A DNA stretch of 64,000 nucleotides, taken from IMG/VR virus record IMGVR_UViG_3300040758_000214, positions 1 through 64,000 of that record; one strand, given 5' to 3'. A program made the position numbers and the translations under genes. How positions within the stretch are numbered: position 1 is the stretch's first letter; every line of letters begins with the position of its first letter. Positions 3 to 64,000 of this stretch are shown one piece after another. The stretch comes from a virus. Under the pieces are notes generated by a model, which was not told where the DNA came from, did no database searches, and saw only the letters and a program-made list of their open reading frames with translations.

Positions 3-2213
3 CCTGGCGGGAATGACTACTGGAGCAATATGTGGTTGAAAACTATTGGAACTCAAACCCATGTGTTCGTAGGTTTTTCTATCAAAGTCGAACCGGGCTT
101 CTCTAAGCCTGCCGGGTGTTCTGCCGGTTACAAACTGATGGATAGGTTTTTCATGTCAAATGATGATGACACTATTTATTTAGAGGCCGAGAATGGCAAC
201 TGCCCCGGCGATATGCAGATATACAGCGAACCGTCTGGATGGTTCTATGTTGGCATCAACCAAGCGGATTACGTCGACGGGAACTGGCATTATATTGAGT
301 TGGAATTTAACTTGGCCGGGAATAAGTTTTCATCCTGGTTGGATGGAAACATAAAAGTAAATAATCAGACAACCACATGGGCGGCAGGTGTCGGGATGGT
401 AGGCGTATCCTTTGGGATTGGCAATACTACTTCTGCCACGAATTATCAGTCCACATGGAAGCGATTGTGGTACGACGATTTAATTTTTGCCACAACTCAA
501 GCTGAAGCTGGTTTGCCCTCAGATTGGGGGGGAGTGGTGAACGGTGTATGCGGATCGAATAATGGAGGTTCGTTCGCATCGCTTACCAGTGGCGACCCCG
601 CGAACTGTGCATCAGGGACCGTGGCGAGTTTCACCGGGACCGGACCGTGGACATGGGGCTGCAACGGTAGTGGTGGAGGCACAAGCACGGCGAGCAACGC
701 CTGCTCGGCCACTTTAAATAGCGGCTCGGTTCCGGTGGTCACATTCACATTGCCGTCTACCTATTCGAGTCTGACTGTGCCAATAACCACATTCACCGCG
801 ACAAACAGCCCCACTAATTACTGCATTACGACCGTCAACAGTTCGGCGGGGTGCTCTTGGACAGGGGGGGCTCCGACGACTGTCACGGGCGTTTCAGGGG
901 TAAATACTTTCTATGCGTGGGCTGAGAATGGGGCGGGGATATCGAGCGGAGTGAGCCAACCAACAACAATTACCTTGGGGACCACGCTTTTCAGCGAGAA
1001 TTTTGATGATACGAGCTTCACGGCAAGGGGATGGTATGACGCTATTCCTTCATCCATTGCTTCATCCGGTTGTTACTCTGGTGCGGGGTGCGCTCAATTT
1101 TCCTTCACGCAAGGGGGGACCAACCCGACACAACTACCTACGGGGGCGATGAGAAAAGAATTTACGGCCACGGATTCGCTGTATCTTTCCTTTTACATCA
1201 AATTTGCTACTGGTTGGGAAGGGTCCCAGAACACCGTTGGACCGCATATGATGTATATTTTGTCAGACCTTGACGACACCGCTAACCAATACAGCCCGTT
1301 GGCGAACTGTTACCTTAACACCTACATTGAATTTTTATCAGACATTGGCAGTCCCTATAACATCCATTCACAGATCGACGTGCAAGACGAAAAGAACTCC
1401 AATATGTCTTATTCGTGTTCGGCGGGAAGTAGTTATGTCACCCAATCGTCATGTACTGGGGCCGGTGGGACTTGGACGTTGCCAATAGATTTGCGGGGTG
1501 TCACAGAAAACAGAAGCGTTGGATGGTGCAATACCCCACTTTATAACGGGGCCGCAGGATCATGCTATGCTGATTACACATACTATTCCGCGGCTAATTG
1601 GGAAGCTCCACTCCCCCCGATTTCTACGAATACTTGGCATCATATAGAAGTCTATCTGAAGATGAATTCTATCGTTGGCGGCATCGGGCAAACAGACGGT
1701 ATCATGCAGGAGTGGATGGACGGGACGCAGGCGATTAACTACTTCAATATGATTTATAGGACCGGTCAACACCCGACAATGAAATGGGCTCAGTTTGCAA
1801 TATCACCCTTTTACGGTAATGGGATGCCAATCGCGCAGTCATTTTATATAGATGAATTAACGGTGGGAACTGCATCTCCATACAGTTCCGGAGATACGAC
1901 TCCTCCAACTGTAACATCTTTTACATTACCTTCAACATCATATAGTTTAATTATACCAATTAATACTTTTACTGCTACAGATGATGTTGGTGTAACAGGA
2001 TATTGTGTTACAACCACAAATAGTTCAAGTGGATGTACCTGGGTAGGTTCTGCTCCTACATCATTAACAGGAATTGTGGGATTAAATACATATTATGCCT
2101 GGGCTGAAGATGCAGCAAATAACATATCTTCTTCAGTTTCTGCTTCCACAACTATAACTTTACCCACAGTGGGAGGAAGTTTAATTTGTAAAGGATGTAT
2201 AATAAAACATTAA
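3..2213 (+). CDS. Large Ser/Thr/Gly-rich surface or virion-decoration protein (ConA/LamG- or polysaccharide-lyase-like beta domains plus two Ig-like repeats); 5' partial
   Basis: Frame is open to the window edge (PGGNDYWSN precedes M30). Two WHxIE...W(L/M)DG...(W/F)Y(D/I)D(L/E) beta-sandwich-like domains, a Cys-rich NGVCGS...GPWTWGC module, and a duplicated FTLPST..L..PI.TFTAT...YAWAE module. Confidence 0.6.
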   Translation, partial: PGGNDYWSNMWLKTIGTQTHVFVGFSIKVEPGFSKPAGCSAGYKLMDRFFMSNDDDTIYLEAENGNCPGDMQIYSEPSGWFYVGINQADYVDGNWHYIELEFNLAGNKFSSWLDGNIKVNNQTTTWAAGVGMVGVSFGIGNTTSATNYQSTWKRLWYDDLIFATTQAEAGLPSDWGGVVNGVCGSNNGGSFASLTSGDPANCASGTVASFTGTGPWTWGCNGSGGGTSTASNACSATLNSGSVPVVTFTLPSTYSSLTVPITTFTATNSPTNYCITTVNSSAGCSWTGGAPTTVTGVSGVNTFYAWAENGAGISSGVSQPTTITLGTTLFSENFDDTSFTARGWYDAIPSSIASSGCYSGAGCAQFSFTQGGTNPTQLPTGAMRKEFTATDSLYLSFYIKFATGWEGSQNTVGPHMMYILSDLDDTANQYSPLANCYLNTYIEFLSDIGSPYNIHSQIDVQDEKNSNMSYSCSAGSSYVTQSSCTGAGGTWTLPIDLRGVTENRSVGWCNTPLYNGAAGSCYADYTYYSAANWEAPLPPISTNTWHHIEVYLKMNSIVGGIGQTDGIMQEWMDGTQAINYFNMIYRTGQHPTMKWAQFAISPFYGNGMPIAQSFYIDELTVGTASPYSSGDTTPPTVTSFTLPSTSYSLIIPINTFTATDDVGVTGYCVTTTNSSSGCTWVGSAPTSLTGIVGLNTYYAWAEDAANNISSSVSASTTITLPTVGGSLICKGCIIKH

Positions 2214-2233: not shown

Positions 2234-2518
2234 ATGGATATAATTCAAGAATATTTGACTTATTTGAATGAAGGAATTAAGATTCCTTTAAAGGTTGGGG
2301 CTTTAGGTTTATCATTGGATGATTCTTTGGATAAATATAAAAATCAAATTTTATCAGGTAAAAAGAAATGGCTAAGAATGAGTAAAGAATTGAATACACT
2401 TTTTATATACAATAAAAATCACCATCCAGATATTGCAGCTAAAGCAAGAGGTAAGAGAATAGCTTTAGCAAAATGGGTTGAATCTAAACGAAAAAATAAT
2501 CCTGATTTTGGATTATAA
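2234..2518 (+). CDS. Small hypothetical protein with YLxxLxE N-terminus (possible head-internal protein)
   Basis: RBS GAGG; N-terminus MDIIQEYLTYLNEG. Confidence 0.55.
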   Translation: MDIIQEYLTYLNEGIKIPLKVGALGLSLDDSLDKYKNQILSGKKKWLRMSKELNTLFIYNKNHHPDIAAKARGKRIALAKWVESKRKNNPDFGL

Positions 2519-25165: not shown

Positions 25166-27133
25166 ATGGGCACACCAATATCACCAGGTGTATATTCAAC
25201 CATCATTGATTTAAGTAATTATGTAGGAGCAGTCCCAGGAACAATTGGATTCGTTGCAGGTCTTACAAAACAAGGAGAAGATAATAAATTCAAATTCTTT
25301 GGATCAAGAACTGATTTTATTAGAGAAAATGGATCTCCAAATATTAATACCTATGGTAAAAATTACGGACAAGGTCCATATATAGCCTATAATTATTTAG
25401 GTGAATCTGGTTCGTTGTTTTGGATGAGATGTTTACCTAATGATGCAGCATATTCAAATTTACAAATAAATGGAGCAGTAAATCAGTCTGGGGTTGCATC
25501 AATTCAATTAGCATATAATACAGCTTTAAATAATAAAGATGAAATAAATACTGCTCTCGTAGGAGATAGTACTTCTGTATTTCCAATTTGTATTTTATAT
25601 CCAATTGGAAGAGGCGACTATTATAATGGACTCAGTGTGAGATTTACCAAATATTCAAATCCCTTAGCCGTAGGGATATATGTACTTGATATTTACGAAG
25701 TACAAACTTCGAGTGGAGTTGAGTCAATTATTGAAAGTTTTGAAGTTTCTTTTGATCCTTCTGCTACGGATAATTCTGGAGATTCCATTTGGATAAGTTA
25801 TGTATTAAATACTTATTCTTCAGTACTAAGAGCTCAAATGACTCTTCCTAATCCTGAAAATGACACAGATCCAAATGATATAACTTATACTCCGGGATTC
25901 AATTTAATTAAAAACTATGATACAAATGTTGGAACCGTTAGTGTAGTTAAAACTGCTTCTGCAACAATTACAGATAATAAACAAGATTTCTCTCAATGGG
26001 AAGGTACTGGTGGTATAGCCAATTATATGGTTATTGCTCAAGATAATAGAGGAAATACTATATATGGTTATATTGGAGAAGTTACTCCTGATAATGAAAC
26101 TGCAGTAGTATATCAAAATCTTAGTTTAACAACTCAAGGCTGGATTAATGATACAACTTTATTTAATATTAATTCTACAATTACTTATCAAGTCAAAAAG
26201 TATAATTTAGATATTTCCACAGTTTTTTCTTCTTCTATTCCAGTTCCTTTAAAAAAAGGAAGCGATGGAAGCTTAGTCGATAGTACCGGAAAATTAGTAC
26301 CGAGCATTGCAACTCAAGTACTCGCAGATGCATATGCCGGAACCATAGATGATGCAGTTTTAGATACCGAAAATCAATATTTCTCTATGGTCTTTGATGC
26401 AGGATATCCATCTTCTGTAAAAACTCAAATTTCAAATTTAGCAGTTACAAGAGCAGATTGTTGTGCGATAATGGATAATTCTGATAATAATTCTGTGTCA
26501 GCAGCATTAACTACCAGAGAAAATACTAATGCTTTTAATAATTTTTATACTGCTCTTTATGAACCATTTAATAATGTATATGATATATTTACTGGATCTA
26601 ATATATGGGTAAGTCCTGTATTTCACATGAGTTATTTACTACCAAGCAATGACAAAATAGCAGAATTATGGTTCGCAGCGGCGGGATTTAATAGAGGTGC
26701 TATTTCATCTATCACCCAGATGAGATTTAATGCCAAACAAGGTGAGAGAGATGCATTATATTTAGCTCGGCTTAATCCTATTGTAAAATTCAATGAAGGA
26801 TATACTGTTTTTGGGAATTTAACAACTCAATATAAAGACTCTAAGATGGAAAACCTTAGCGTAGTAAGGTGTGTTCTTTATATTAAAAGAGCAATTGAAA
26901 GATATTGTAGATTCTTTATTTTTGAACAAAATGATGCTATTACTTGGAGTAAAATTAGTAATGAAATAACTCCATTTTTAGACGATGTAAAATGTCGAAG
27001 AGGATTAAATAGCTATTCAGTATCGGTTGGTGCAACCGATTACGAGCTAAAGACAAAGCGTTGCCATGTTTCGTGTACCCTAAATCCGGAAACCCCACTT
27101 GAAATTATATTGCCTCAATTTTTTATTGTTTAA
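25166..27133 (+). CDS. Contractile tail sheath protein (gp18-like)
   Basis: SPGVY..IIDLS, WFAAAGFNRG, RDALY..RLNPIV, VVR, FIFEQND..TW motifs. Confidence 0.93.
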   Translation: MGTPISPGVYSTIIDLSNYVGAVPGTIGFVAGLTKQGEDNKFKFFGSRTDFIRENGSPNINTYGKNYGQGPYIAYNYLGESGSLFWMRCLPNDAAYSNLQINGAVNQSGVASIQLAYNTALNNKDEINTALVGDSTSVFPICILYPIGRGDYYNGLSVRFTKYSNPLAVGIYVLDIYEVQTSSGVESIIESFEVSFDPSATDNSGDSIWISYVLNTYSSVLRAQMTLPNPENDTDPNDITYTPGFNLIKNYDTNVGTVSVVKTASATITDNKQDFSQWEGTGGIANYMVIAQDNRGNTIYGYIGEVTPDNETAVVYQNLSLTTQGWINDTTLFNINSTITYQVKKYNLDISTVFSSSIPVPLKKGSDGSLVDSTGKLVPSIATQVLADAYAGTIDDAVLDTENQYFSMVFDAGYPSSVKTQISNLAVTRADCCAIMDNSDNNSVSAALTTRENTNAFNNFYTALYEPFNNVYDIFTGSNIWVSPVFHMSYLLPSNDKIAELWFAAAGFNRGAISSITQMRFNAKQGERDALYLARLNPIVKFNEGYTVFGNLTTQYKDSKMENLSVVRCVLYIKRAIERYCRFFIFEQNDAITWSKISNEITPFLDDVKCRRGLNSYSVSVGATDYELKTKRCHVSCTLNPETPLEIILPQFFIV

Positions 27134-45387: not shown

Positions 45388-46104
45388 ATGAAGTATTCAT
45401 TTGCTGCATTAGGAGAAAATATATTAACTCGTAAATTCGGAGGATCAGCTTCTACGGGTGCTGCGGAGCCATATATTTCTGGCTATTTTTTCGTCTGGTT
45501 TGACAGACTACCTAATAACCTTATTAACTATACTCAATTAGGAAATAGTGGTCTTTCCTCTCTTAGTGATTGCCAAAATATTTTAAGTGCAAGTTGTACA
45601 GGTTGTACGCCCCCAGGCGGCACTTTAAACAAGGTTGAATATACCGGACTAGGTGGTGTTAAGTGGGCAGTTCCTGGTCATATTGATTATCAAAATTCGG
45701 TATCCTTAAAATTCATTGAATTTTATAGAACTCCAATTCTTGATATTATGCATGGGTGGGTAAAAATGATTAGAGATTATAGAACTGGTACTACAGATCT
45801 TCAAGCTGATGATTCTGGTCAGGGATATACGAAAAATGATTACTCTGGGACGATATACTATTGGACTACAACTCCTGACGCAAAAAATGTTGAGTATTTT
45901 GCATGTTATGATGGATGTTTCCCTGCAAAAGATCCACAAGATTTATATCATGGTGATGTTGAAACTGTAGGAAGATTAGATGTTGAAATTGAATTTAACG
46001 TAGATTATATTTGGCATGAACCTTGGGTTAGAGAAAAATGTCAGAGTTTAGTTTCTGTATTCCAAGCAGCAAAGCAGACTGTTCAAAATTATCAGGAACC
46101 TTAA
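45388..46104 (+). CDS. Tail tube protein (gp19-like)
   Basis: C.PPG.TL..VE..G.GG....PG.IDY...SLKF.E......W; Y.G.FP; EIEFNVD. Strong GGAGG RBS. Confidence 0.75.
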   Translation: MKYSFAALGENILTRKFGGSASTGAAEPYISGYFFVWFDRLPNNLINYTQLGNSGLSSLSDCQNILSASCTGCTPPGGTLNKVEYTGLGGVKWAVPGHIDYQNSVSLKFIEFYRTPILDIMHGWVKMIRDYRTGTTDLQADDSGQGYTKNDYSGTIYYWTTTPDAKNVEYFACYDGCFPAKDPQDLYHGDVETVGRLDVEIEFNVDYIWHEPWVREKCQSLVSVFQAAKQTVQNYQEP

Positions 46105-46145: not shown

Positions 46146-46838
46146 ATGGAACTAACTGGCATGAAAATAAATGAACAAGATATGGAATGGGCGTGCAAGC
46201 AATATTTACTTGATCAAATTCCTTCTAGTAAATATATTCAATAAAATTCAACAGTAGATCAAAGACAACAATTTAAAGAATGGATTAAAAAAGCATCTTT
46301 AAAAGAAATTTTAGTTATTATAGAACAAGATAGTAAAAATAATATGTATTTAAATAAGGGATGGAAATATATTTATGGAGTAGGTTTAGCTGCGGCATTA
46401 GGTGGAATGGTTGGGGCCGCATCTTCTTATACTAGGAAAGGAGATGCTCTAGCCGTAGGTTCTATGTTGGCTAGCGCATCTACATTATTATATTATTTTT
46501 ATAAACGAAAAAAAGATCCATGTCATCAAAAATGCAAAGATGCATCGACTACACATAAATTTGGGGAATTAGAAAGATCTTTAAGGTATCAAATATGTAG
46601 AACAGAGTGTTCTATAGTTGCTGCAAAAGATGTATTAAGGCAAGTAACAAGTCAAAAAGGAAAATGCAGTAGTACAGAAAAACCAGAAAAATGTTTAAAA
46701 TCTTTATCTAAATTAGAATTAAAATGGAGACGTAAAATAGAAAACTTAGAAGATATATTACGTGATCTTAAACATAGATTTTCTACAGGAAAAACTAAAA
46801 CATCACCTATTAAATTACAACCTGCTTTTAAAAGTTAA
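46146..46838 (+). pseudogene. EQ/Cys-rich paralog 1 with an in-frame TAA at 46242-46244
   Basis: AGGAGG RBS, then MELTGMKINEQDMEWACKQ...KYIQ*NSTV in frame with the 46344 ORF. Paralogs have Glu at the stop position. Confidence 0.75.
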
Positions 46839-46854
46839 TGGAGATTAAACCCAA

Positions 46855-47610
46855 ATGAGTGCTATATCTGATTCCCTATTATTTCTTATCACATTACGCA
46901 AGACAATGTGTGAATTTATAGACAATTCTAAAATAAGTGATATTGATAAAGCTAAGGGTAAAAATTTTATAATGAATGAAGGTAGTGATTATGAGATTTT
47001 AACTTTAGCAGTAAGAGGACAAAGACCAACAGAAAAATATAATATAGTTGAAGAAAAGAAATTATTTGAAGATATTAAAAATTGTGTATCTAAGAATAGT
47101 GAAACTTTTAATAAACTATTATCTGAAAAAGTTGCAAAGGATTTTGCTAAAGATTTAACTCCATTATCTGAATATGGATTAACTTCTTGTGTTCCTATTA
47201 TGAATTTTATAATAGAACAACAAGTTTGGGGAAATGTTCAAAAAGCTGCAAGGGCTGAAAGATGGAAGGGAGTTGATGCAGGTATTGCAAAATTGAGGGC
47301 TACAAATGATATGTATGCTAAGAATAAAAAATTTAGCAAACAAGTTGGTGGAGCTTTATTAGCTGCTATGATTGCCTATGCGGCTTATAAAATATACAAG
47401 AATAAATTCAGTGCAGCAGCTAAAGCATGTAAAGGAAAGACTGGTCCTGAAAAAACTTTATGTATGAATAACTTTAAGGTTGCTGCAATTAAAGCACAAA
47501 TTGCTCAATTGAAGTCCGGTTCGTCTGGATGTAATTCATCTAAAGATCCTGTAAAATGTAAAGCTGTTATATTGGCTAAAATTAAGAAACTTGAAGGGAA
47601 ACTTAAGTAA
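46855..47610 (+). CDS. EQ/Cys-rich paralog 2 (subfamily B)
   Basis: DSLLFLIT.RKT, FIMNE..DYEI, IIEQ, hydrophobic helix, AAKAC...C...C...PVKC. Confidence 0.75.
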   Translation: MSAISDSLLFLITLRKTMCEFIDNSKISDIDKAKGKNFIMNEGSDYEILTLAVRGQRPTEKYNIVEEKKLFEDIKNCVSKNSETFNKLLSEKVAKDFAKDLTPLSEYGLTSCVPIMNFIIEQQVWGNVQKAARAERWKGVDAGIAKLRATNDMYAKNKKFSKQVGGALLAAMIAYAAYKIYKNKFSAAAKACKGKTGPEKTLCMNNFKVAAIKAQIAQLKSGSSGCNSSKDPVKCKAVILAKIKKLEGKLK

Positions 47611-47640
47611 TTTCAATGTAGGGCGGGGGTTATACTTTAG

Positions 47641-48465
47641 ATGAATAATTCATTACTTTTTACATTAGCCATTAGGAGAACTTTGTGTGAGTTCCTCAGC
47701 TATAGTCAGTTAGACTTAAAGGCTAAGAAATATTCTAAACATTTTGTTATGTATGAAGCAACTGATTATGAAATTATGTCGTTATTAATGACCGGAGATT
47801 ATCCTGTTAAGAAGTATAACCCTCTCAAAGAAGAAAAGTTATATAATCAATGTAAAAATATTATCTTAGAAAACATATCTGAAATCTCACCTTATATAGA
47901 AAAATCAATTTTAAAAAATATTATCACTGAATTAGCTCCTATTAAAGGTTCGTCTAATGTTTTATTAAAAGAATATATTAATGAGCAAATACAAGTCAAA
48001 CATCAAATAGATCCCCAAGGAAGACCAAATTGGAAAGCAATTGCTGGTGCTGCGTTTACTGCGGGAATGGCTGCAAATGTGGGAAATCCTTTAGGTAAAG
48101 ATTTATATGAATATGGTAAGAAAAATGCTAGGCAGGGATTAGCATCTCTTATGTCATATTTAAAATCTACAAATGGCAAAATGGTTGGATCTGTAATGGC
48201 TGCATCTTTGATTGTATATGCTTCTATAATTATATATCATAAATATTTTTCAAATGCAGCAGTTACATGTAAAAATTTAAAAGGAAATGAGAAAGATCAT
48301 TGTGTTAAAAAAATAAAAATGAATGCTTTAAAAAATCAAATTAATACATTAAAACAAGGAAGTTCTGCATGTTATAGTAAAGAGAATCAAGACAAATGCC
48401 AAAGAGTTATTAAAATGAAAATTCTAAAACTCCAACTTAGATTACAAAAATTGGAGCGGAGTTAA
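47641..48465 (+). CDS. EQ/Cys-rich paralog 3 (subfamily B)
   Basis: SLLF...RRT, EATDYEIMS, INEQ, hydrophobic helices, 4 conserved Cys. Confidence 0.75.
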   Translation: MNNSLLFTLAIRRTLCEFLSYSQLDLKAKKYSKHFVMYEATDYEIMSLLMTGDYPVKKYNPLKEEKLYNQCKNIILENISEISPYIEKSILKNIITELAPIKGSSNVLLKEYINEQIQVKHQIDPQGRPNWKAIAGAAFTAGMAANVGNPLGKDLYEYGKKNARQGLASLMSYLKSTNGKMVGSVMAASLIVYASIIIYHKYFSNAAVTCKNLKGNEKDHCVKKIKMNALKNQINTLKQGSSACYSKENQDKCQRVIKMKILKLQLRLQKLERS

Positions 48466-48472
48466 ACATATA

Positions 48473-49390
48473 ATGAAAAATATTAAAGATTCAATGTTAT
48501 TTTTATTAATCACTAGAAAAACCATAAGTGATTTAATTGTTAGTGAATCTAATTTAAATCCTTCAGATAAAGTTTTAGCAAAAAATTTTATTATGAATGA
48601 AGCTACTGATTATGAAATTATGTCTGTATTAATGGAAAGTCAATTACCTAATGAACAATATAATGATATTAAAGAAGATAAATTATTTGAATCTTTAAAA
48701 AAATGTATATTAATAAATGAAAAAGTATTATCTAAATATATACCTAAAGAAACAATTCAATGTGTTTTAGAAATTGATTCAGTTTCTCAATATGGATTTT
48801 CTTCATCTATTCCTATAATGGAATATATGATTGAACAATATCAAGCTGATATGAGTGATGATGATTATCGTCATAGTGGTGGAAGTAATGTTGTAGGAAA
48901 AGCGGGCGAGGCAGGAATGACTGCTTTAATAATGAGGCCAAGAGGTGGATATAAACGAGCATTTACAAGATATAAAAATAGAAAATTACCAAAACAAATT
49001 GCAGCTGCAAAAGCATTACCGGCTAAAACAATGAATTTTTTAAGAACTGGAAGACAAGCTGCAATGAATGGAATTTCATCTGTTGTTAATTTTGCTAAAT
49101 CTGGTCCTGGAAAAGTATTAGGAATAGTTGCAATTGTTGCTTTAGTTGCTTTAGCTGCAAATAAAATTTATAGAGAAAAATTAAGTCAAGCAGCAAAAGC
49201 GTGTTCTAAATATACTGGCCCTGAAAAACAAAATTGTATGAGAGGATTTAAAAGAACAGCTCTTTCTGCTCAAATTGCTCAATTAAAAGCTGGATTAGCT
49301 GCATGTAAAGGAACAAATAATCCAGAAGGTTGCCAAAATAAAATTGCTAAAAAAGTAGCATCATTACAAAGGAAAATATCTAAAATATAA
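48473..49390 (+). CDS. EQ/Cys-rich paralog 4 (subfamily B)
   Basis: DSMLFLLITRKT, FIMNEATDYEIMS, MIEQ, TM VLGIVAIVALVALAA, 4 Cys. Confidence 0.75.
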   Translation: MKNIKDSMLFLLITRKTISDLIVSESNLNPSDKVLAKNFIMNEATDYEIMSVLMESQLPNEQYNDIKEDKLFESLKKCILINEKVLSKYIPKETIQCVLEIDSVSQYGFSSSIPIMEYMIEQYQADMSDDDYRHSGGSNVVGKAGEAGMTALIMRPRGGYKRAFTRYKNRKLPKQIAAAKALPAKTMNFLRTGRQAAMNGISSVVNFAKSGPGKVLGIVAIVALVALAANKIYREKLSQAAKACSKYTGPEKQNCMRGFKRTALSAQIAQLKAGLAACKGTNNPEGCQNKIAKKVASLQRKISKI

Positions 49391-49400
49391 AGAGGATAAT

Positions 49401-50102
49401 ATGGAACCTAAACTTGATAAGAAAGCTCTTGAATGGGCTTGTAAACAATTAATATTAACTTCTGCAAAAAATAGTAAATATTTAAAAGAAAATTCTGAAA
49501 GTAAAGAAAGAATATTATTTGCTAAATGGGTTAAGGGATTAACATATAATCAAACATTAGGAATTTTATTTGAGCAAAATTATAAACCAAATACTCAAAA
49601 AATTAGAGATATTGAAGACGCCTATGCTATATTATCATTATTAGGATTTGCTTCATATCTAGGAACAGGAGCTGCAACATTAAAAAATATATTTCAAGAT
49701 AGAACGGGTAGAGCTGGAATATATTTTGCATCACATATATTAACTACAGCTTCTATGATTTTATATTATAAATATAAACAATATAAAGATCCTTGTTATC
49801 AAAAATGTAAGAATGTTTTACCTGCGCATATTAGAAATAGATATGAAGAACGTCACAGTTTAGAGGATCTACCTGAATATAATGTTTGTACTACTAAATG
49901 CGCATTAGACGCTGCTATTAATATATTAAGACAAATTAAAGGAGAAAAAGGAAAATGTTCTAGAACAGAAAAACCAGAAAAATGTATAGAACGATTAAAT
50001 AAATTAGAAATAAAATGGACTGAAAAAGTTAAAGATTTAAAAGATAGTTTGATAAAATATGAAAAAGAAGCTAGAGAGGAAAGAGAAACTCGTAAATATT
50101 AA
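49401..50102 (+). CDS. EQ/Cys-rich paralog 5 (subfamily A)
   Basis: LDKKALEWACKQ, LFEQ, DPCYQKC...C...C...KC..TEKPEKC...KLEIKW. Confidence 0.75.
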   Translation: MEPKLDKKALEWACKQLILTSAKNSKYLKENSESKERILFAKWVKGLTYNQTLGILFEQNYKPNTQKIRDIEDAYAILSLLGFASYLGTGAATLKNIFQDRTGRAGIYFASHILTTASMILYYKYKQYKDPCYQKCKNVLPAHIRNRYEERHSLEDLPEYNVCTTKCALDAAINILRQIKGEKGKCSRTEKPEKCIERLNKLEIKWTEKVKDLKDSLIKYEKEAREERETRKY

Positions 50103-50128
50103 ATCAACCAACGAAAGGAAATCAAAAA

Positions 50129-50917
50129 ATGTTTAGAGGATTCAATTTAAAGTATCCGGAATACGAAGTAATCACACCTCAGACTAAAAGATCATTTACT
50201 TTGAGGTCATTGAATGTCAGTGAAGAAGAGAATATGAAAGGGAGTATGATGACTCCATTGAAAATTACGGAGCATCTTAATTCATGTATTTATGAAGTCT
50301 TAATTAAAAAGCCAGATGATATTACTGACTTTAAATCTTTTTTAACTAAGACTACAATTAAAGATAGAGAAGCTTTATTGTATGGTCTTTATCATATTAC
50401 ATATGAAGAGATTAGAAATTATGAAATAAAATGTGCAGCATGTAAAAAGGATTATCCTGTTACAGCTAAAGCATCTGATATGTTTGGATTCAATATTTAT
50501 CCTAGTGATGATAATATATTAGACATACGTATTAGAGTTGATCTTCCTATATCTAAAGGTATTTCAGTTTATATTAAACAACCATCTTTAGAAGATGAAG
50601 TTTCATCTTTAAAAAATTATGCAACTTTAGCTGGAACTAATATGGATATTATCACTCAAACATTAATAATTGATAGATTTGAACAAAGTACTGATTCACC
50701 TGACCCAATTATTTATGATCAACGTGGTGATATTATAGATGCATATAGAAGTTTACCTTCTAAAGACAGAAAAGAAATCAATGCTAAATATACTGAAAAT
50801 TTTGGTAAATATGGTATTGAATTAAAAATGAGAACTTTCTGTCCATCATGTTCCAATGAGGAGGTAATCAATATCGACCTTGTCGAAAACTTTTTTCGTA
50901 TGGTGTACACGGTATGA
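50129..50917 (+). CDS. Baseplate hub / tail assembly chaperone (T4 gp26-like)
   Basis: P.YEV..P, LRSLNV.EE, DREALL, CAAC and CPSC Zn knuckles, C-terminal ENFF. Confidence 0.75.
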   Translation: MFRGFNLKYPEYEVITPQTKRSFTLRSLNVSEEENMKGSMMTPLKITEHLNSCIYEVLIKKPDDITDFKSFLTKTTIKDREALLYGLYHITYEEIRNYEIKCAACKKDYPVTAKASDMFGFNIYPSDDNILDIRIRVDLPISKGISVYIKQPSLEDEVSSLKNYATLAGTNMDIITQTLIIDRFEQSTDSPDPIIYDQRGDIIDAYRSLPSKDRKEINAKYTENFGKYGIELKMRTFCPSCSNEEVINIDLVENFFRMVYTV

Positions 50918-51098
50918 TAATATAAGTGAGTTTAAGAAAAATTTACAAGAAAATATTTTTGCATGTAAAGAATTAACTGGAGAAGGATATATAGACATAA
51001 TGTCCTTACCTGTTGAAAGATTCTATGGTCTTATAAAATGGAAAACAGACTTAGAAAAAGATAAGCAAAAGATGATGAACGAAAAAATACAAAAATAG
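50880..51098 (+). CDS. gp51/GT-like tail assembly extension (possibly frameshift-fused to the upstream gene)
   Basis: Y.DIMSLPVERF...I.W motif; overlaps the upstream gene and has no well-spaced start. Confidence 0.55.
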   Translation: MSKTFFVWCTRYDNISEFKKNLQENIFACKELTGEGYIDIMSLPVERFYGLIKWKTDLEKDKQKMMNEKIQK

Positions 51099-51108
51099 GA
51101 TATAATAA

Positions 51109-51543
51109 ATGGCCTCAATTCTAGACAAATTTATTAATAACTCTATAGGTGCACGTGGTAGGATTACAGATTATACATCTACTATTACACCATCTGGAGA
51201 CTTTGATAGAATTTATGAATTAAATGCTATTTTAATGTCATGGAATACTATATTAATTACTCCATTAAGAAGTTATACATATGATCCTGATTTTGGTTCT
51301 GAGTTATATAAATATGTATTTGAACCGTGTGATGATTTTACAAAAGATGAAATTCAAAATGAGATTAAATTAAGATTAACAACATATGATGATAGAGCTT
51401 CTATTGAATCAATTGATATTTCATATTTTCCTAATAAAAAAGGATTCACTGTAAATATAATAGCAAATTATCAAGGAACTACTGGGAGTTTAAATACTCC
51501 TATAGATCAATCTACATATTACAATTTCTTGAGATCTCAATGA
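51109..51543 (+). CDS. Baseplate wedge protein gp25 (GPW/gp25 family)
   Basis: AI..S...IL.TP......P.FGS.L..YVFEP...I...L..YD.R. Confidence 0.85.
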   Translation: MASILDKFINNSIGARGRITDYTSTITPSGDFDRIYELNAILMSWNTILITPLRSYTYDPDFGSELYKYVFEPCDDFTKDEIQNEIKLRLTTYDDRASIESIDISYFPNKKGFTVNIIANYQGTTGSLNTPIDQSTYYNFLRSQ

Positions 51544-52040
51544 AAATATTCTATTATTTTGTATTAAAGAATTATCGTGGATTATTTCGTAAAAAGTTTG
51601 TTGGGAATACCCACTTATTCTTAATTCCTAGAGCTGGTGATGATTATCTATATTTAGCCCTTTTAGGAAATATTGTAGATGAAGATAATTCATATGCTTG
51701 CGTATTAATATCAAGAATTCCTGATGATTTATTAGATGAAATAATTAATGGTGAACATAAACATTTTGGTGAAAGATTTGAATTAATTGATGAAATAAAA
51801 GTGAACACTATTAATGAGAATAAAGGTGAATATGAAATAAAAGTATTAAGTAAAAGTCAGCATATTCTTTCCGATTTAGAAATGATATATAATGAAGACT
51901 TAAGTTCAAATTCAAAAAGGATTTATATTATTAAAGGTAAATTAAATTTATCAACAGAAGATGTTGGATTAGATTCAACACTTAGAATTGATGCTTATAA
52001 AAAGTTAGCATTAGTTTCTAATAAAAATAGGAAAGTCTGA
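51540..52040 (+). CDS. Hypothetical protein
   Basis: ATGA-coupled ORF in the structural operon. Confidence 0.55.
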   Translation: MKIFYYFVLKNYRGLFRKKFVGNTHLFLIPRAGDDYLYLALLGNIVDEDNSYACVLISRIPDDLLDEIINGEHKHFGERFELIDEIKVNTINENKGEYEIKVLSKSQHILSDLEMIYNEDLSSNSKRIYIIKGKLNLSTEDVGLDSTLRIDAYKKLALVSNKNRKV

Positions 52041-52051
52041 TCGGGGAGGAT

Positions 52052-52630
52052 ATGATGACTAAAGAAATTAAACTTGATAAAAAAGCTCTTGAATGGGCTT
52101 GTAAACAATTAATGATAAACTCAGCTAAAAATGATAAAGTAATTAAAGAAAGTACTTCATTATCGGAACATGTAAAATTCATTAGTTGGATTAATGAATT
52201 ATCTTATATTCAAACCTTAATGTTATTCTTTGATAATAAATATATTAAAGTTAATGAACAACATGTAGCTGAGCCTCAGATTAGACAAAAAGAGTCTAAA
52301 ATTAAAACTGCTCTAAAATATGGATTGGCTGGTGTTGCTGGAGGTATGGTTAATAATGGAACAGGATTAGCTGCAATGTTAGTTTATTATTTTTATAGAA
52401 GATCAAATGATGTTTGTCACAATCAATGTAAAACATCAGCTGATAGTAAGAAATGCCAATATATTTGCAGAGTTACTGCAGCTAATCAAGTTTTAAATAA
52501 TATTAAATCTGAAATAGGTAAATGTAATAAAATGTCTAAACCTGATAAATGTAGAAATAATTTACAAAAGATGGCTAATAAATGGAACAAAATATTGATG
52601 CATAATAAGGCTAAGTTGGATCAATTATAA
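52052..52630 (+). CDS. EQ/Cys-rich paralog 6 (subfamily A)
   Basis: LDKKALEWACKQ, VNEQ, KYGLAGVAGG, 6 Cys, PDKC...KW. Confidence 0.75.
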   Translation: MMTKEIKLDKKALEWACKQLMINSAKNDKVIKESTSLSEHVKFISWINELSYIQTLMLFFDNKYIKVNEQHVAEPQIRQKESKIKTALKYGLAGVAGGMVNNGTGLAAMLVYYFYRRSNDVCHNQCKTSADSKKCQYICRVTAANQVLNNIKSEIGKCNKMSKPDKCRNNLQKMANKWNKILMHNKAKLDQL

Positions 52631-52633
52631 ATA

Positions 52634-53362
52634 ATGGAGGATAGAAAACAAATGGAAAAGAAAGTGGTAAAAAAGGAAGTTAAGAAAGAAGTAAAGAAAC
52701 CTGTTCAAGAATCAAAAGAAATAGTTCTTGATAAAAAGGCTTTAGAATATGCTATTAGAAAAATGTTATTCTCCTCTATTTCTGAGAGTAAAATTCTAAG
52801 AGAAAAATTATCTTTTGATGACCATATTAAACTTTGCGAATGGACTACTAAACTTACTTATGAAAATTTAATCCTTGTTTATTTAGGTGAGAATCCTAAG
52901 TCTAAATTAAATGAACAAGATGCAGGTAAAATTAGAGATTTTGAAGGAAGAGCTAAAACCGCTATGAAATATGGCTTTGCTGGTCTTGCCGGTGGATATG
53001 GTATTAAAAAGGCTGCTGGTAAAATAGGTGTTGCATCTAAACTTCCTGGTGCAACTAAAACTATTGGCGCAGCAATGTTGGCATTTTATATATTTAGAAA
53101 ATTTACAGATCCATGTTTTAGAAAATGTTTAGGTACAGGCACTTTAGGTGTAATGGGCAAGAAACATAAACTTTGTAAATATGAATGCCAAATTAATGCA
53201 ATAAAAACTGTATTAGGGCAGCTCAGAAGTCAAAAGAGTGTATGTGCTAAAACTCATAATCCAGAAAAGTGCCTAAGGCAATTATCTAAGCTCGAAATTA
53301 AATGGGCTAAAAAATTACAAGAAACTTTAGCTAAATTTAATGAAACCCGTGCAAAGATATAA
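52634..53362 (+). CDS. EQ/Cys-rich paralog 7 (subfamily A)
   Basis: LDKKALEY, LNEQ, KYGFAGLAGG, DPCFRKC...PEKC...KLEIKW. Confidence 0.75.
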   Translation: MEDRKQMEKKVVKKEVKKEVKKPVQESKEIVLDKKALEYAIRKMLFSSISESKILREKLSFDDHIKLCEWTTKLTYENLILVYLGENPKSKLNEQDAGKIRDFEGRAKTAMKYGFAGLAGGYGIKKAAGKIGVASKLPGATKTIGAAMLAFYIFRKFTDPCFRKCLGTGTLGVMGKKHKLCKYECQINAIKTVLGQLRSQKSVCAKTHNPEKCLRQLSKLEIKWAKKLQETLAKFNETRAKI

Positions 53363-53897
53363 ATCAATAAAGTCATTTATATTAGAGACAATTTCTAAGA
53401 GTAAAATATTACGAAAGAAATTGTCTCTATCAGAACATCTAAAATTGTATAAATGGGCTACACAATTAAATGAAGATCAACTATGTGATTATTTATTTGA
53501 ATCTAATCATATTCCTAATTACACAGTTCAAAAAATTTTAGATGTAGGATTGGCTGCTGCAGTAATAGCACCTATTCCTGGGAGTGAATGGTTATTTTTA
53601 GCTGTAAGATATTTAGAAGAAAATTTTAGTAAACAGTGTTTGAAAAAATGTGAATCAAGAAAACATGAAAAGCAAATTTGCTATTGGAGCTGTCATCTGG
53701 ATTCAATAATTAAAGTTAGAACAATTATAGAACAAGAATATAATAAATGTCGTTATGAACCATTAGAAAAATCAAAAAATAAATGTTTTAAAAAACTAGG
53801 ATATTTATTAGGTAGATGGAAAGATAGAGAATTAAAAATTAAAAATAAAGTAGATATAATGCAAAGAATGAAAGTCATTAATAGACTACGGAGATAA
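53340..53897 (+). CDS. EQ/Cys-rich paralog 8 (divergent subfamily A)
   Basis: SKILRKKLSLSEHLKL..W, LFES, hydrophobic segment, C..KC...C...C...KC...KC...W. Confidence 0.7.
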   Translation: MKPVQRYKSIKSFILETISKSKILRKKLSLSEHLKLYKWATQLNEDQLCDYLFESNHIPNYTVQKILDVGLAAAVIAPIPGSEWLFLAVRYLEENFSKQCLKKCESRKHEKQICYWSCHLDSIIKVRTIIEQEYNKCRYEPLEKSKNKCFKKLGYLLGRWKDRELKIKNKVDIMQRMKVINRLRR

Positions 53898-53902
53898 TCA
53901 TA

Positions 53903-54544
53903 ATGCAATTGTATAACAGAATATATGATTACATTAAAGACTATCAAAGTTTAGTATATGACACATATAGCAAACATGTAGTTGCATATCCTATTACATA
54001 TTATCATTTAGATATAACTACAGTTGTATGGGATGATAAGAACCTCATGGGCGGATACTATGAAAGGATTGGTGAATTATCAGGATTGAAATGGGATAAA
54101 ATATTATTGCTTCCTGTTTATTATACTGAAGAAATGATTGCTCAATGGAATGCTGAAGATATAGGTTATGTATCATTTACTGAAACTTATGCCATTATTC
54201 CTGAGACTTATGGATTTATACCTTATCCAAATGATGTAATAAAAATAGATCAATTGTATCAACCACAACCTGATAATAAATATACTATTTATACATGTAC
54301 TGGAGTTTCAAAAAGTACAACAGATAAAGTTTTTTATAAATTACATTTTGAGGTTGAACAATCTAGAACTCCAGCTGATATGGATTTACAATTATCAAAT
54401 ACTTATACATGGTTAGATTATACTAAAAAGATTCATACTTTAAATGATGCAACATTCTTAACAAATATGTTATCTAAAAATCAACAATTGAAGGAAAATT
54501 CAAAAATAAAGTATGATAAGAATGTAGGATATTATTTTTTATAA
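53903..54544 (+). CDS. Probable virion (neck/head-closure-like) protein
   Basis: Located in the structural operon; ITYY...LPVYY...PYPND pattern; weak assignment. Confidence 0.4.
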   Translation: MQLYNRIYDYIKDYQSLVYDTYSKHVVAYPITYYHLDITTVVWDDKNLMGGYYERIGELSGLKWDKILLLPVYYTEEMIAQWNAEDIGYVSFTETYAIIPETYGFIPYPNDVIKIDQLYQPQPDNKYTIYTCTGVSKSTTDKVFYKLHFEVEQSRTPADMDLQLSNTYTWLDYTKKIHTLNDATFLTNMLSKNQQLKENSKIKYDKNVGYYFL

Positions 54545-54554
54545 GAAAGGAAAA

Positions 54555-54929
54555 GTGATGAACAAATTAATTTCATTATTTATTCTATTATTTATAATGG
54601 GATCTTATAATTTAGTTTATGCAATAGATGGATTTATATCTGCAGAAATTGATTCAGATGTTTATGGTAAACATTTAGCTCCAGATTTTCAAGGGCAATT
54701 AGGACAAGTGTTTGGTGATTATAGAATTTATGGAGCTTTTGAAAGATGTAATGAAACTCCAATATTTACTAATAGTGATGAACATTACAGACTTGGAATT
54801 GAATATAATCATTTTGATAACTTAAAATTAGAAGCTGGGCCTGGATTATATCACGGACGAGCTTTTTTATTTGGGAAAATTACATACTCATTTGATACAT
54901 CGAGGAAAGGAGATGCCAAAACTAAATAA
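54555..54929 (+). CDS. Secreted protein, possibly a small outer-membrane beta-barrel
   Basis: Signal peptide; alternating aromatic strands (YRLGIEY, FGKITYSF). Confidence 0.5.
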   Translation: MMNKLISLFILLFIMGSYNLVYAIDGFISAEIDSDVYGKHLAPDFQGQLGQVFGDYRIYGAFERCNETPIFTNSDEHYRLGIEYNHFDNLKLEAGPGLYHGRAFLFGKITYSFDTSRKGDAKTK

Positions 54930-55263
54930 TTGGATTGATAAAATTTGTATTACTATATCTGATTTATTAGGAACTAATTTTTGTATATTTATATTTATAC
55001 TTATAGCATTTGTTCCTTTATATTATCAAACACCAAAAACAATATCAGAATGGCAAAATTGGTTAAGCCAAACATGTATTCAATTAGTCGCTCTTGCAGT
55101 ATTACAAAAAGGAACTAAAATTGAAGGTAATCGTACATATAATATGCAAAAAGAAACTCATGATACAGTAATGAATGAATTTGCTGAAGTTAAAGAAATG
55201 CATGAGTTCTTACTGAAAGAGATAAAAGAAACTAAAATATATTGTAAAGGATGCAAGAATTAG
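54913..55263 (+). CDS. DUF1003-like membrane protein
   Basis: Hydrophobic N-terminal half, W.SQT.IQLV.L.V; start set at M15 after AAGGAG. Confidence 0.55.
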   Translation: MPKLNNWIDKICITISDLLGTNFCIFIFILIAFVPLYYQTPKTISEWQNWLSQTCIQLVALAVLQKGTKIEGNRTYNMQKETHDTVMNEFAEVKEMHEFLLKEIKETKIYCKGCKN

Positions 55264-61537: not shown

Positions 61538-64000
61538 TTAAAATAGATTACCATGAGCAACATTATGTAATTCTGCATCAAATGGATTTTGATGTTGCCC
61601 ACTATTATTTGTAGTATTTATATTTTTTATAGATGATGCAACATTATTTGTGCTTACCACTAAATTATTTCCAAGTGTTGTTAAATTTCCCATTGCTGCA
61701 GCTTGAAATTTTTCATTTGAATTTTTCATAGCGTCTATCTGCAACGATTCTTTAGCAACATGCATATCTACTAATTCTTTTTTAGAGAATGCATTATAAT
61801 ATTTTTTAACTTTTTCTATATATTGGCGTGTTTCTTTTACTGGATGAGAAGCTCCTCTTCCCCCACCATTATAATAGCCTAAAGCTTTATCTAAATTACC
61901 ATGATATTTGTTTAATAAATATAATAAAAATTTAGTTCCCCCCCTTACATTTTGTACCGGATCATATGCATTTGTGACGCCCAGTTGCCTTGCAGTAGGA
62001 GGCATTAATTGCATTAATCCCTGGGCTCCTCTACTAGATGTAGCATTTGGGTTTCCCCCACTCTCCGCTTGAATGACGGCTTTTACTAAATCACTACCAT
62101 TAACTCCCCAATTTTTAAAGTCAAATGTTTTACCAAATCCTAGATCATCAATACTCCATCCTTTTTTTCCAGTCCTAGCAGCTGGATTTTTAGAAGCAGG
62201 TGCATTTGGAGCAGGTCTCATATTATTAGGAACTGCACCATTTCCAATATTAACTTCAGGAAATAATTTAGAAAATTGAGATAACCATTCACCACCTTTC
62301 CATCCAATTATTGCTCCTCCTAATATACCCATTGGATTCCCACCAGTGGCAACAGCTCCCAAAGATGCACCAATTACAGCCCCTTCTATTTTCATAGATC
62401 GTTTACTTAAAAAACTAAAAGTAGATTGAACAACATCTTCAATTGTATCAACCGGATGTTGAATAACTTTCATAGCTCTCATTGCAATACTTTCTATTCC
62501 TTCCCACATTCCATTCAATGATTTAGCAATTCTTTCAGGTCCAATATATCCAAATATTCCACCTATTAAAGCTCCAACAGGAGGCCCAAATGGGGGAGCC
62601 AACATTCCAATGACCATACCTCTCATTGCACCAAAGAATGCACCTTCCATTTTTCCTAAGAATCCATGGAATCCTCCTTTAGATTGACCATAATCTCCAC
62701 CACCTAAATATCCACCTAAAGTAGAGAAACTTTTTTGAGCACCAGTTGCTTTACCACCAAACCATTCATTAGACTTTCCCTCGCCAGCAAAGGCATTCAT
62801 TAGGGAATCTACAATTCCTAATATTCCAGCTCCTTTTAAACCACCTCTAGCAATTGCACCTTTATTATTCCATAGACCTTTTGCTCCACCCCATAATCCT
62901 TTACCTAAAAATTTTGCTCCGGACCATGCCATTTTACCCATAGCTAAAGGTATAGTCCACTTAAAGAATTTTAAAAGTTTAAATATTTTTTCTCCGCCCC
63001 AAAATCCAGCCTTGAATATAGGACCTAAAAATGGTATTCCTCCTAAGAAACCTTTTACTCCTGAATATAATGCCATTATCATTAAACCTAGATCACTAAA
63101 GAAACCTTTACCTTTTTTATACATAGTATGAACACCTTCTTTAGTTCCTTCGGTTGCATCTTGAATTTTCTTTAATCGTTTATCCATTGTACTATTTTTG
63201 GCAACATCTATATATTCCGCATCAATATATCCGGCTCCACCTGTCAATAATTTTTGACCGCCACCAATTTGACCATATTTTCCTCTTCTAAATTTATTTG
63301 CTATCCAACCAAACATTCCGCCTAAACCTATTGCTGAGGCTACGGCTCTAATTCTTTGATAATTTGTATATGTTTGATTCCCAGGAGGTGCAACATCTTC
63401 ACCTGTAATTTTTTCACTTAATCTTCTTAAGTAGAAAATCATTTGGTCATATCTTTCCATACTTCTTACATAAGTTATAGCTAAAATATTGGCCATATTT
63501 TCTTGAACATTTGTGGAATGTGGTAATTCTCTTTCATACCTATTTCTAACTTTGAATAAGAATTTTGGTATTTTATTAAATACTGAATCTAAGACATGTA
63601 ATCCTGTTGCTACTTTTCTAAAGAATGGATTTTGCATTACATATTTAATTAAGTGAGATTTAAGATCAAGTCCCATTCCAGTCATTGCTAATTTTAAACT
63701 AAATAATGTATTATAAATTTTAGATAACCAACCACCTTTATCTAAGCTAACTTTACTATTCAATAATTGTTCTGTTGAATATTTTCCTTTTTTAAATAAT
63801 TTACTTATTGGAGAAACTACTTCACCAGCATGAACGTATACAACTCCACCTTTAGATATTAATCCTCCGGATTGTAATTTTGGAATATTTTTTGCTCTAA
63901 TACTTGCATTGGAAGGTGAATCAAAATAATCATCGGATTCATTTAATCCTTGTTTTTTTCTACGTCTTCTTGCTCTAAATTCTTCAAATGTAATTGCGGA
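61538..64000 (-). CDS. Tape-measure protein with soluble lytic transglycosylase (SLT) domain; 5' partial
   Basis: Frame open to the window edge (PKLQSGG...VHAGEVVSP); Gly-rich hydrophobic repeats; [25 protein letters not shown]...YNGG...ETRQY. Confidence 0.88.

Follow-up and report, generated by a model that had tools for sequence, protein, structure and literature searches.

Eight paralogous genes in a phage baseplate operon belong to a large unnamed family of giant-phage proteins that may be loaded into the head and matured by a T4-type protease

The window analysed here is the first 64 kb (64,000 nucleotides) of the 143-kb IMG/VR virus record IMGVR_UViG_3300040758_000214. Within its tail and baseplate operon lie eight paralogous genes, located between positions 46,146 and 53,897. 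These genes belong to a large unnamed late-operon family, carried by a clade of uncultured phages of approx. 250–310 kb that have T4-type head and baseplate genes. Judging from the sequences, we give about an even chance (probability roughly 0.5) to the reading that the proteins of this family are loaded into the phage head, cut by the prohead protease and delivered together with the DNA. Packaging and proteolytic maturation had been proposed earlier from the letters of the window (hereafter the sequence-only reading); the occurrence of family members in head modules, a T4-type leader peptide and a skewed distribution of potential cleavage sites speak for this proposal, while the exact E|Q column on which it was built is not conserved.

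The paralogues fall into two types, A (five genes) and B (three genes); protein lengths are in amino acids (aa):

46146..46838, + strand: A1 (A-type), broken by an in-frame TAA; junction IIEQ at 46317-46328
46855..47610, + strand: B1 (B-type, 251 aa); junction IIEQ at 47209-47220; four C-terminal Cys
47641..48465, + strand: B2 (B-type, 274 aa); junction INEQ at 47977-47988; hydrophobic helix with a Kyte-Doolittle mean of 2.0
48473..49390, + strand: B3 (B-type, 305 aa); junction MIEQ at 48827-48838; the member modelled by AlphaFold2
49401..50102, + strand: A2 (A-type, 233 aa); junction LFEQ at 49566-49577; six C-terminal Cys
52052..52630, + strand: A3 (A-type, 192 aa); junction VNEQ at 52250-52261
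52634..53362, + strand: A4 (A-type, 242 aa), extended at the N-terminus by a stretch rich in Lys, Glu and Val and without a distinct hydrophobic peak; junction LNEQ at 52907-52918
53340..53897, + strand: A5 (A-type, 185 aa), the most divergent; junction LFES at 53493-53504; first 23 bases shared with the end of A4

The homology of these plus-strand genes, their starts and the positions of all eight junction motifs were confirmed. Among the A-type proteins, the product of 49401 matched those of 46146 (E = 1.4e-41), 52634 (1.3e-25), 52052 (1.8e-18) and 53340 (9.6e-6), and among the B-type proteins the product of 48473 matched those of 46855 (2.8e-26) and 47641 (1.3e-22). The single architecture that had been claimed for all eight holds for the C-terminal module, but not for the N-terminal regions, which show no detectable kinship between the types: a comparison of the A and B profiles (hhalign; 93.6%, E = 2e-7) aligned 65 columns, comprising only the end of the hydrophobic helix and the Cys region.

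The family architecture consists of (i) an acidic N-terminal region, (ii) a boundary motif of the form aromatic-aliphatic-x-Glu|Gln, (iii) a variable Ala/Gly/Lys-rich linker and (iv) a conserved C-terminal module, in which one Ala/Gly-rich hydrophobic helix is followed by a strongly basic helix-turn-helix-turn-helix with a Cys pair flanking each turn. In 153 B-type relatives the median net charge is −10 for the N-terminal domain and +13 for the C-terminal module, and the linker extends over 23–289 residues (A 17%, K 15%, G 11%). The parts that follow the helix in the window paralogues carry net charges of +8 to +16.

The gene at 46146 had been taken as intact, and an in-frame TAA at 46242-46244 had been overlooked; it occupies codon 33, which is a Glu codon in the other A-type genes. 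The sole ATG-started frame of this gene (46344-46838, 164 aa) begins five residues past the junction and therefore encodes almost exactly the post-junction piece. A strong GGAGGA precedes 46146, and no clear ribosome-binding site was found ahead of 46344. On its sequence, A1 may either be a pseudogene or have been shortened on purpose, so as to yield a ready-made 'mature' form without the pro-region. Counts of in-frame TAA codons in relatives were considered as a sign of recoding and dropped, at least one of these codons (G004:224990-226024) being the gene's own stop.

An exhaustive profile search of 1.84 billion representatives returned 1777 metagenomic cluster representatives (clustered at 50% identity) at E<=1e-3, 1210 of them at E<=1e-10 and 271 at E<=1e-30. 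The earlier statement that the proteins belong to no recognisable named family was borne out. Comparison of all eight with Pfam and PHROGs gave nothing above noise (no PHROG at E 1e-3), and six short relatives likewise reached no PHROGs family past E 1e-3. In a sequence search of the PDB the B-type profile reached an E of 0.28 at best, Foldseek found no match at E<=1e-3 in PDB or BFVD for the whole B3 model or its N-terminal domain, and the ESM Atlas held no usable match. A word-indexed protein search returned 3–7 relatives, none of them named; the search of GenBank phages, also negative, is described below.

The sequence-only reading had pointed to several hydrophobic-x-Glu sites in each N-terminal region, and the counts agree with this: the window paralogues contain 44 such sites among the 701 residues that precede the junctions and 6 among the 1211 that follow them. 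In the 153 B-type relatives, [ILVM]-x-E occurs 6.37 times per 100 aa in the N-terminal region (1234 observed versus 646.8 +/- 18.7 in composition-preserving shuffles) and 0.56 times per 100 aa after the boundary (191 versus 217.5 +/- 13.1). The corresponding densities in 47 A-type sequences are 5.37 for the N-terminal region and 0.86 for the remainder, the latter holding 76 sites where 105 +/- 8.5 were expected. In 254 clusters, the parts ahead of the helix contain the longer motif hydrophobic-x-E-Q 117 times, versus 37.4 +/- 6.2 times in shuffles. We also considered that the sites might merely be at background frequency. Over the open reading frames (ORFs) of the genome, hydrophobic-x-Glu averages 2.25 +/- 1.05 per 100 residues, and whole family proteins lie near that mean; the explanation is thus true for whole proteins and false once the N-terminal region and the remainder are counted separately.

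Short members that lack the long N-terminal region begin with a leader of 12–16 residues, x-Y-L-x-Y-L-N-E, which is followed by Q, T or V and then by a Gly/Ala-rich stretch. They were found in head modules or elsewhere outside the baseplate module (L132:1541, L135:501, L137:7819, L124:6669 and L117:5663; L and G numbers are our labels for related loci and genomes) as well as within baseplate modules (L050:10660, L043:6718). With an aromatic residue at P7 and P4, an aliphatic one at P3 and Glu at P1, the leader matches the key positions of the capsid-targeting sequence of T4 IPIII. In this peptide, whose 10-residue signal sequence is printed in PMC8442874, targeting depends on residues 4 and 7 and processing on residues 8 and 10, and gp21 of T4 cuts after L/I-x-E (PMC9026906). 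In its last four positions the leader agrees with the B-type junctions of the window (F-I-I-E|Q, Y-I-N-E|Q and Y-M-I-E|Q); the A-type junctions keep the aliphatic-x-Glu part.

The same leader occurs on proteins unrelated to the family. It is common to a Cys-free protein of approx. 80 residues (net charge +11 to +19), conserved a short way ahead of the portal gene in L124, L125, L127 and L133, and looser variants of it were found on this protein in L123, L126 and L131. The distance to the portal gene is approx. 250 bases (e.g. L127:3076-3312, L125:2898-3140), and the copy in L127 weakly matches a PHROG whose members are virion structural proteins (8e-4). By its sequence and position, this basic protein is the best candidate of the clade for a T4-style internal protein. 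In L131 the leader also heads a +26 protein encoded after the protease. A protein scan revealed one further instance in the window itself:

2234..2518, + strand: small basic ORF (94 aa, net charge +8), unrelated to the family, whose first 13 residues are a Y-L-x-Y-L-N-E leader

As far as its sequence can tell, this ORF, which has no PHROG match, shows that the window phage uses the leader, and its product is a candidate packaged protein of that phage. A degenerate DNA pattern for the leader found no match in G000, G004 and G005; the window variant differs from this pattern at one codon class.

Gene order provides the third line of evidence. Besides its baseplate module, the 248-kb genome G005 carries five further copies of the family, and its head module reads portal (phrog_213), a 297-aa ORF, a family member, the head maturation protease (phrog_207, 3.2e-23), a second member, a 137-aa ORF and the major head protein (phrog_20655, 1.5e-42). 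The corresponding stretch of T4 encodes prohead core proteins (PMC9026906). In a survey anchored on the protease, members were present in 5 of 17 head modules, located before the portal gene, between the portal and protease genes or right after the latter; L124 has four members before the protease and one after it. The complete genome G004 (312 kb, with direct terminal repeats) carries copies only in the baseplate module. The capsid protein of the clade keeps N-L-L-E|N approx. 15 residues before its conserved mature core, at what would be the maturation position, and this motif fits the L/I-x-E specificity of a T4-type protease.

Other ORFs are inserted beside the prohead protease gene in some relatives. 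Four of these are Cys-rich (306–388 residues, 17–18 Cys; L125:6655-7584, L126:6648-7568, L133:4980-5978 and L137:6656-7822) and look like homing endonucleases, which suggests that this stretch accepts insertions. In the same region G004 has a different ORF of 202 residues with 1 Cys (L122:5069-5677).

Loading into the head would proceed as follows. The N-terminal region, or the 12–16-residue leader in the short relatives, would dock the protein to the prohead core, as the capsid-targeting sequence does in T4. The prohead protease would then cut after the boundary Glu and shred the pro-region. The C-terminal piece, basic and protease-resistant, would remain beside the DNA inside the head and exit together with it at infection. 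The mature piece could neutralise the charge of the DNA, build an inner core, insert into a membrane or use its Cys pairs as a redox switch.

Several observations weigh against this reading. All eight window copies lie within the baseplate operon and none with head genes, and the 143-kb fragment (46% of the genome by CheckV) contains no prohead protease or head module. In the eight window paralogues the motif is situated 55–122 residues from the N-terminus, whereas the T4 signal acts at the extreme N-terminus, and the B-type site falls within a helix that is predicted with confidence. The best-conserved Glu of the A-type is part of I-R-D-F-E, with Asp at P3. The counts of site density were made on related sequences and not on independent events, so that independence is overstated, and acidic amphipathic helices may themselves favour the hydrophobic-x-Glu motif. 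A hydrophobic helix is unusual in a soluble capsid cargo. No cultured relative or virion proteome came to light: comparison with GenBank phages at the DNA and protein level gave no match, tblastn against 50,697 phage records included (the gp6-like baseplate protein of the window, described below, also lacked a match there).

The E|Q column, whose alignment across homologues had been set beforehand as a test, does not align: E is kept in 38 and Q in 15 of the 153 B-type sequences, and the A-type junction falls in two different alignment columns. The loss of this column is softened by two findings, namely (i) a conserved site four residues upstream, where 119 of the 153 B-type sequences retain Glu117, within P-[IVL]-[LM]-E-[FHY], and 134 have I, V or L at its P3, and (ii) the occurrence of [ILVM]-x-E within a 12-residue window at the boundary in 136 of 153 (approx. 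24% expected from the mean density). We hold the probability at 0.5 because the reading is built from sequences and because of the baseplate-operon location, the fragment without a head module, the internal position of the motif and the odd hydrophobic helix.

The location of the window copies is best described against the flanking genes of the operon:

45388..46104, + strand: tail-tube-like gene (phrog_21400, 4.6e-10; phrog_45, tail tube, 1.6e-3; Pfam Phage_TTP_15, 9e-3, below cut-off); upstream border of slot 1
50129..50917, + strand: T4 gp26-like baseplate hub gene (Pfam PF12322 T4_baseplate, 8.9e-12, above cut-off; phrog_150, 5.8e-13); downstream border of slot 1
51109..51543, + strand: gp25-like sheath initiator (phrog_261, 1.1e-18; Pfam GPW_gp25, 6.2e-6, just below cut-off)
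from 55698, + strand: gp6-like wedge gene, recognised by Pfam/PHROG comparison

Slot 2 is bounded by the gp25-like gene (plus ORF 51540-52040) and ORF 53903-54544. Syntenic arrays of paralogues, a search for which the sequence-only reading had suggested, were found in related phages, with varying copy number. All of the first 21 loci, collected with the B-type profile, have the order tube-like gene, 1–4 B-type genes, gp26-like gene, and a few of them also have A-type genes between gp25 and the homologue of 53903. A second and wider survey started from the gp26-like gene and its 252 relatives and yielded 80 loci, of which the 76 new ones were analysed. Members occur in slot 1 (0–4 copies), in slot 2 (0–3 copies), after the 53903 homologue or after gp6, and in many of the 76 contigs only one slot is filled. 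The eight copies of the window form the largest array among the loci surveyed. At least four contigs (L049, L100, L106 and L108) span the baseplate module yet have no members there, their flanking genes abutting directly, and no copy was found elsewhere on the checked fragments of these contigs. From the variable slots, the empty modules and the copies in head modules we therefore conclude that the family is a mobile late-operon gene set and does not form a fixed part of the baseplate. In one relative without members in the module (L101:8984-9547), a 187-residue Cys-free ORF ending in two hydrophobic spans lies between the gp26/gp51-like and gp25-like genes.

This neighbourhood bears on two other explanations, as does a protein of 1000 residues encoded nearby (61538-64000, − strand, running on to position 64543 of the genome), divergently from the baseplate operon. 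It has a lytic transglycosylase domain at residues 816–950 (Pfam SLT, 6e-22) and matches phrog_2013 (5e-33), phrog_669 (1.1e-30) and phrog_1506 (6.9e-7), families annotated as lytic tail protein and tape measure; on these matches it is likely to be the tail lysin or the tape measure of the window phage.

Members lie between the tube-like and gp26-like genes or among wedge genes in 21 of the first 21 loci and in most of the 76 further ones, and in several relatives (L016, L017, L027, L030 and L031) a single B-type gene sits exactly in slot 1. Together with the borderline membrane-span helix, the cationic tail and the proximity of the transglycosylase protein, such a location would suit a cargo of the tail lumen or baseplate hub, whose N-terminal domain docks inside the tube or hub and which leaves first at contraction, inserts into the inner membrane by its hydrophobic helix and aids the tape-measure or lysin protein in opening a path, with no part played by the head protease. 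We consider this role unlikely, since the module is spanned without a member in L049, L100, L106 and L108, members also adjoin prohead protease, portal and capsid genes, and neither the leader nor the skew in site density would have a role.

The stretch from the tube-like gene to the hub is, furthermore, the classical position of a tape measure gene, and the family proteins consist of helices throughout, contain a hydrophobic segment rich in Gly and Ala and vary in their middle part. That they act as one or several helical rulers is nevertheless extremely improbable: members number 0–4 and vary from 70 to 424 residues within the clade, the slot is empty in several relatives, their total length differs from one relative to another, copies are also present in head modules, and the matches of the 1000-residue protein provide a separate candidate.

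A 29-sequence alignment of B-type proteins was assembled from related contigs, and the structure of B3 (48473-49390) was modelled with AlphaFold2. The model of the whole protein (predicted local distance difference test score, pLDDT, 80.5; predicted template modelling score, pTM, 0.77) comprises a helical N-terminal domain (residues 4–132), a low-confidence linker (134–213) and three helices (218–246, 249–280 and 284–304). Cys 244, 255, 278 and 287 flank both helix-helix turns; judging from the predicted secondary structure, each pair could staple one turn, whereas a single site of all four would be ruled out. The spacing is C-x10-C-x22-C-x8-C in the B-type, with the four Cys kept in 149–152 of the 153 representatives, and C-x3-C...C-x3-C-x18-C-x8(11)-C in the A-type. 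Comparison of the module with solved structures (VIA-align) gave generic three-helix matches only, the best being 8u7y_A (Z 7.7, root mean square deviation, rmsd, 2.3 Å, 76 residues aligned).

The B-type N-terminal domain is of interest on its own. Modelled alone, this helical domain of approx. 125 residues is predicted with high confidence (pLDDT 95.1, pTM 0.85), yet its best VIA-align match among 48,161 solved chains is 5ncm_B, with a Z of only 3.9 (rmsd 4.0 Å, 56 residues aligned).

Helical hairpins that are stapled by disulfides and carry twin C-x3-C or C-x9-C motifs are known from the small Tim proteins, CHCH domains and plant alpha-hairpinins. These proteins, compared here by their general description, and the present module are alike in being small, helical and basic, and the A-type has C-x3-C...C-x3-C; in the B-type model, the Cys flank each turn. 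No sequence or fold match stands out for the C-terminal module.

In three relatives the unit of hydrophobic helix and Cys hairpin is tandemly duplicated within one chain (L132:1541-2386, L135:501-1400 and L137:27-761), and the proteins of L132 and L135 bear the N-terminal leader.

The 19-residue Kyte-Doolittle mean of the hydrophobic helices is 1.1–2.2 in the window (no value above 1.0 in 52634); across the 153 B-type relatives its median is 1.46, and 39% reach 1.6. Because of these family values, a membrane span is only a possible reading of the Ala/Gly-rich helix, and a borderline one. A single hydrophobic helix followed by paired Cys, which would be expected to oxidise outside the cytoplasm, could nonetheless point to late proteins of the host inner membrane that never enter the virion: bitopic, with a cytoplasmic N-terminal domain and a disulfide-bonded hairpin in the periplasm, and serving in lysis timing, in superinfection exclusion or as anchors for head or baseplate assembly. 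Copy number and position vary as in accessory genes, and the operon has other small membrane ORFs (54555-54929 and 54871-55263 in the window; the 187-aa ORF of L101). Positively charged flanks of membrane spans normally remain cytoplasmic, however, and the net charge of +13 of the C-terminal domain speaks against its export. Besides the modest hydrophobicity, some members (L117:5663-6037 and L137:7819-8379) lack the helix entirely, PHROGs and Pfam gave no PADLOC-type or holin-type matches, and the leader is common to Cys-free, soluble, basic proteins of the head module. For these reasons a function as membrane proteins outside the virion appears doubtful to us.

Loading into the head may also be combined with membrane insertion. 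Mature pieces of several paralogues, each made up of the linker, the Ala/Gly-rich helix and the cationic Cys-stapled hairpin, might be ejected ahead of or with the DNA and insert into the host inner membrane, as a mixed channel or as the coat of a membrane-bound early compartment around the genome; the membrane potential would draw the +13 hairpin inwards, and the acidic pro-region would be a built-in inhibitor that spares the producing cell. The one observation behind a conduit or compartment, as also raised in the sequence-only reading, is the moderately hydrophobic helix, and we regard this extension as very doubtful.

Among characterised systems, the favoured reading of head loading and protease maturation finds its closest parallel in the internal proteins of T4. 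IPI, IPII, IPIII and Alt are, like the family proteins, late-made, small, basic and poorly conserved, and, as do the short family members and ORF 2234-2518 of the window, they carry an N-terminal amphipathic peptide with an aromatic P7/P4, an aliphatic P3 and Glu at P1 (PMC9026906; PMC8442874). In the clade, too, one leader is found on unrelated proteins. The clade also shares with T4 the type of protease (phrog_207) and the order of capsid genes, and the presumed mature part is basic, as in T4 (+8 to +16 in the window; median +13 in the 153 relatives). The differences are that no sequence similarity was detected with PHROGs, that the window copies have a folded or semi-folded pro-region of 55–125 residues with the motif at its end, that a hydrophobic helix and a Cys-paired hairpin follow the motif, that the genes lie in the baseplate operon and that the proteins are known here from their genes alone.

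A second parallel is offered by the phiKZ-like phages and SPN3US. The ejection proteins gp53 and gp54 of SPN3US are paralogues with propeptides of 125–137 residues that are cut at several sites; the mature C-terminal part of each stays inside the head until it is ejected (PMC10052503). The family described here is likewise paralogous, with a long, multi-site N-terminal region, and the window phage, like the phages of this group, encodes multisubunit RNA polymerase beta-like proteins. In contrast, the SPN3US protease cuts after A-x-E (A/S/G-x-E being the motif of the phiKZ/SPN3US ejection proteins), whereas the window junctions carry I, M, L or V at P3, as in T4; no homology to the SPN3US proteins was detected, and the C-terminal module is without a counterpart in the cited literature.

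If the favoured reading is true, head loading in the T4 style, by a short peptide and a protease cut, operates in a distant clade of uncultured giant phages, where it serves a family of more than 1000 sequence clusters that is unnamed in databases. The leader would then let injected proteins of metagenomic phages be predicted from sequence, and the C-terminal module, in which a hydrophobic helix precedes a basic hairpin with paired Cys, would define a novel type of protein that is internal to the head or injected.

CheckV estimated the completeness of the 143-kb record at 46%, from which a phage genome of approx. 310 kb follows. Between 45388 and 59314 the genes are all on the + strand and nearly gapless, and this stretch holds the tail and baseplate genes together with the eight paralogues; the sheath gene lies outside the operon, at 25166. 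Scans for promoters and terminators were uninformative: the T4 late-promoter word TATAAATA occurs 29 times (25.8 expected), and sigma-70 promoters and terminators were found at chance level.

In most relatives the 53903 gene adjoins the gp6-like gene directly; in the window two small plus-strand ORFs (54555-54929 and 54871-55263) separate them. A signal-peptide-like start and a beta-rich look mark one of these ORFs, a long hydrophobic span the other; neither has a Pfam or PHROG match, and in sequence they resemble inserted accessory membrane genes.

The same baseplate module was also found on two contigs filed under metagenome-assembled genomes of Thermoplasmatales (L140, 35.8 kb) and Woesearchaeota (L141, 211 kb), which are probably phage contigs mis-binned with low-G+C archaea. 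A scan of contigs assigned to metagenome-assembled genomes returned three contigs only and no host clue.

At the beginning of the window, ORF 30-2213 (+ strand, 727 codons) encodes a Gly/Ser/Thr-rich protein with a weak PHROG match (5.7e-4) and a repeated module near residues 230–330 and 640–720. With a G+C content of 48.5%, versus approx. 27% in the window phage, this ORF looks foreign to the remainder of the genome.

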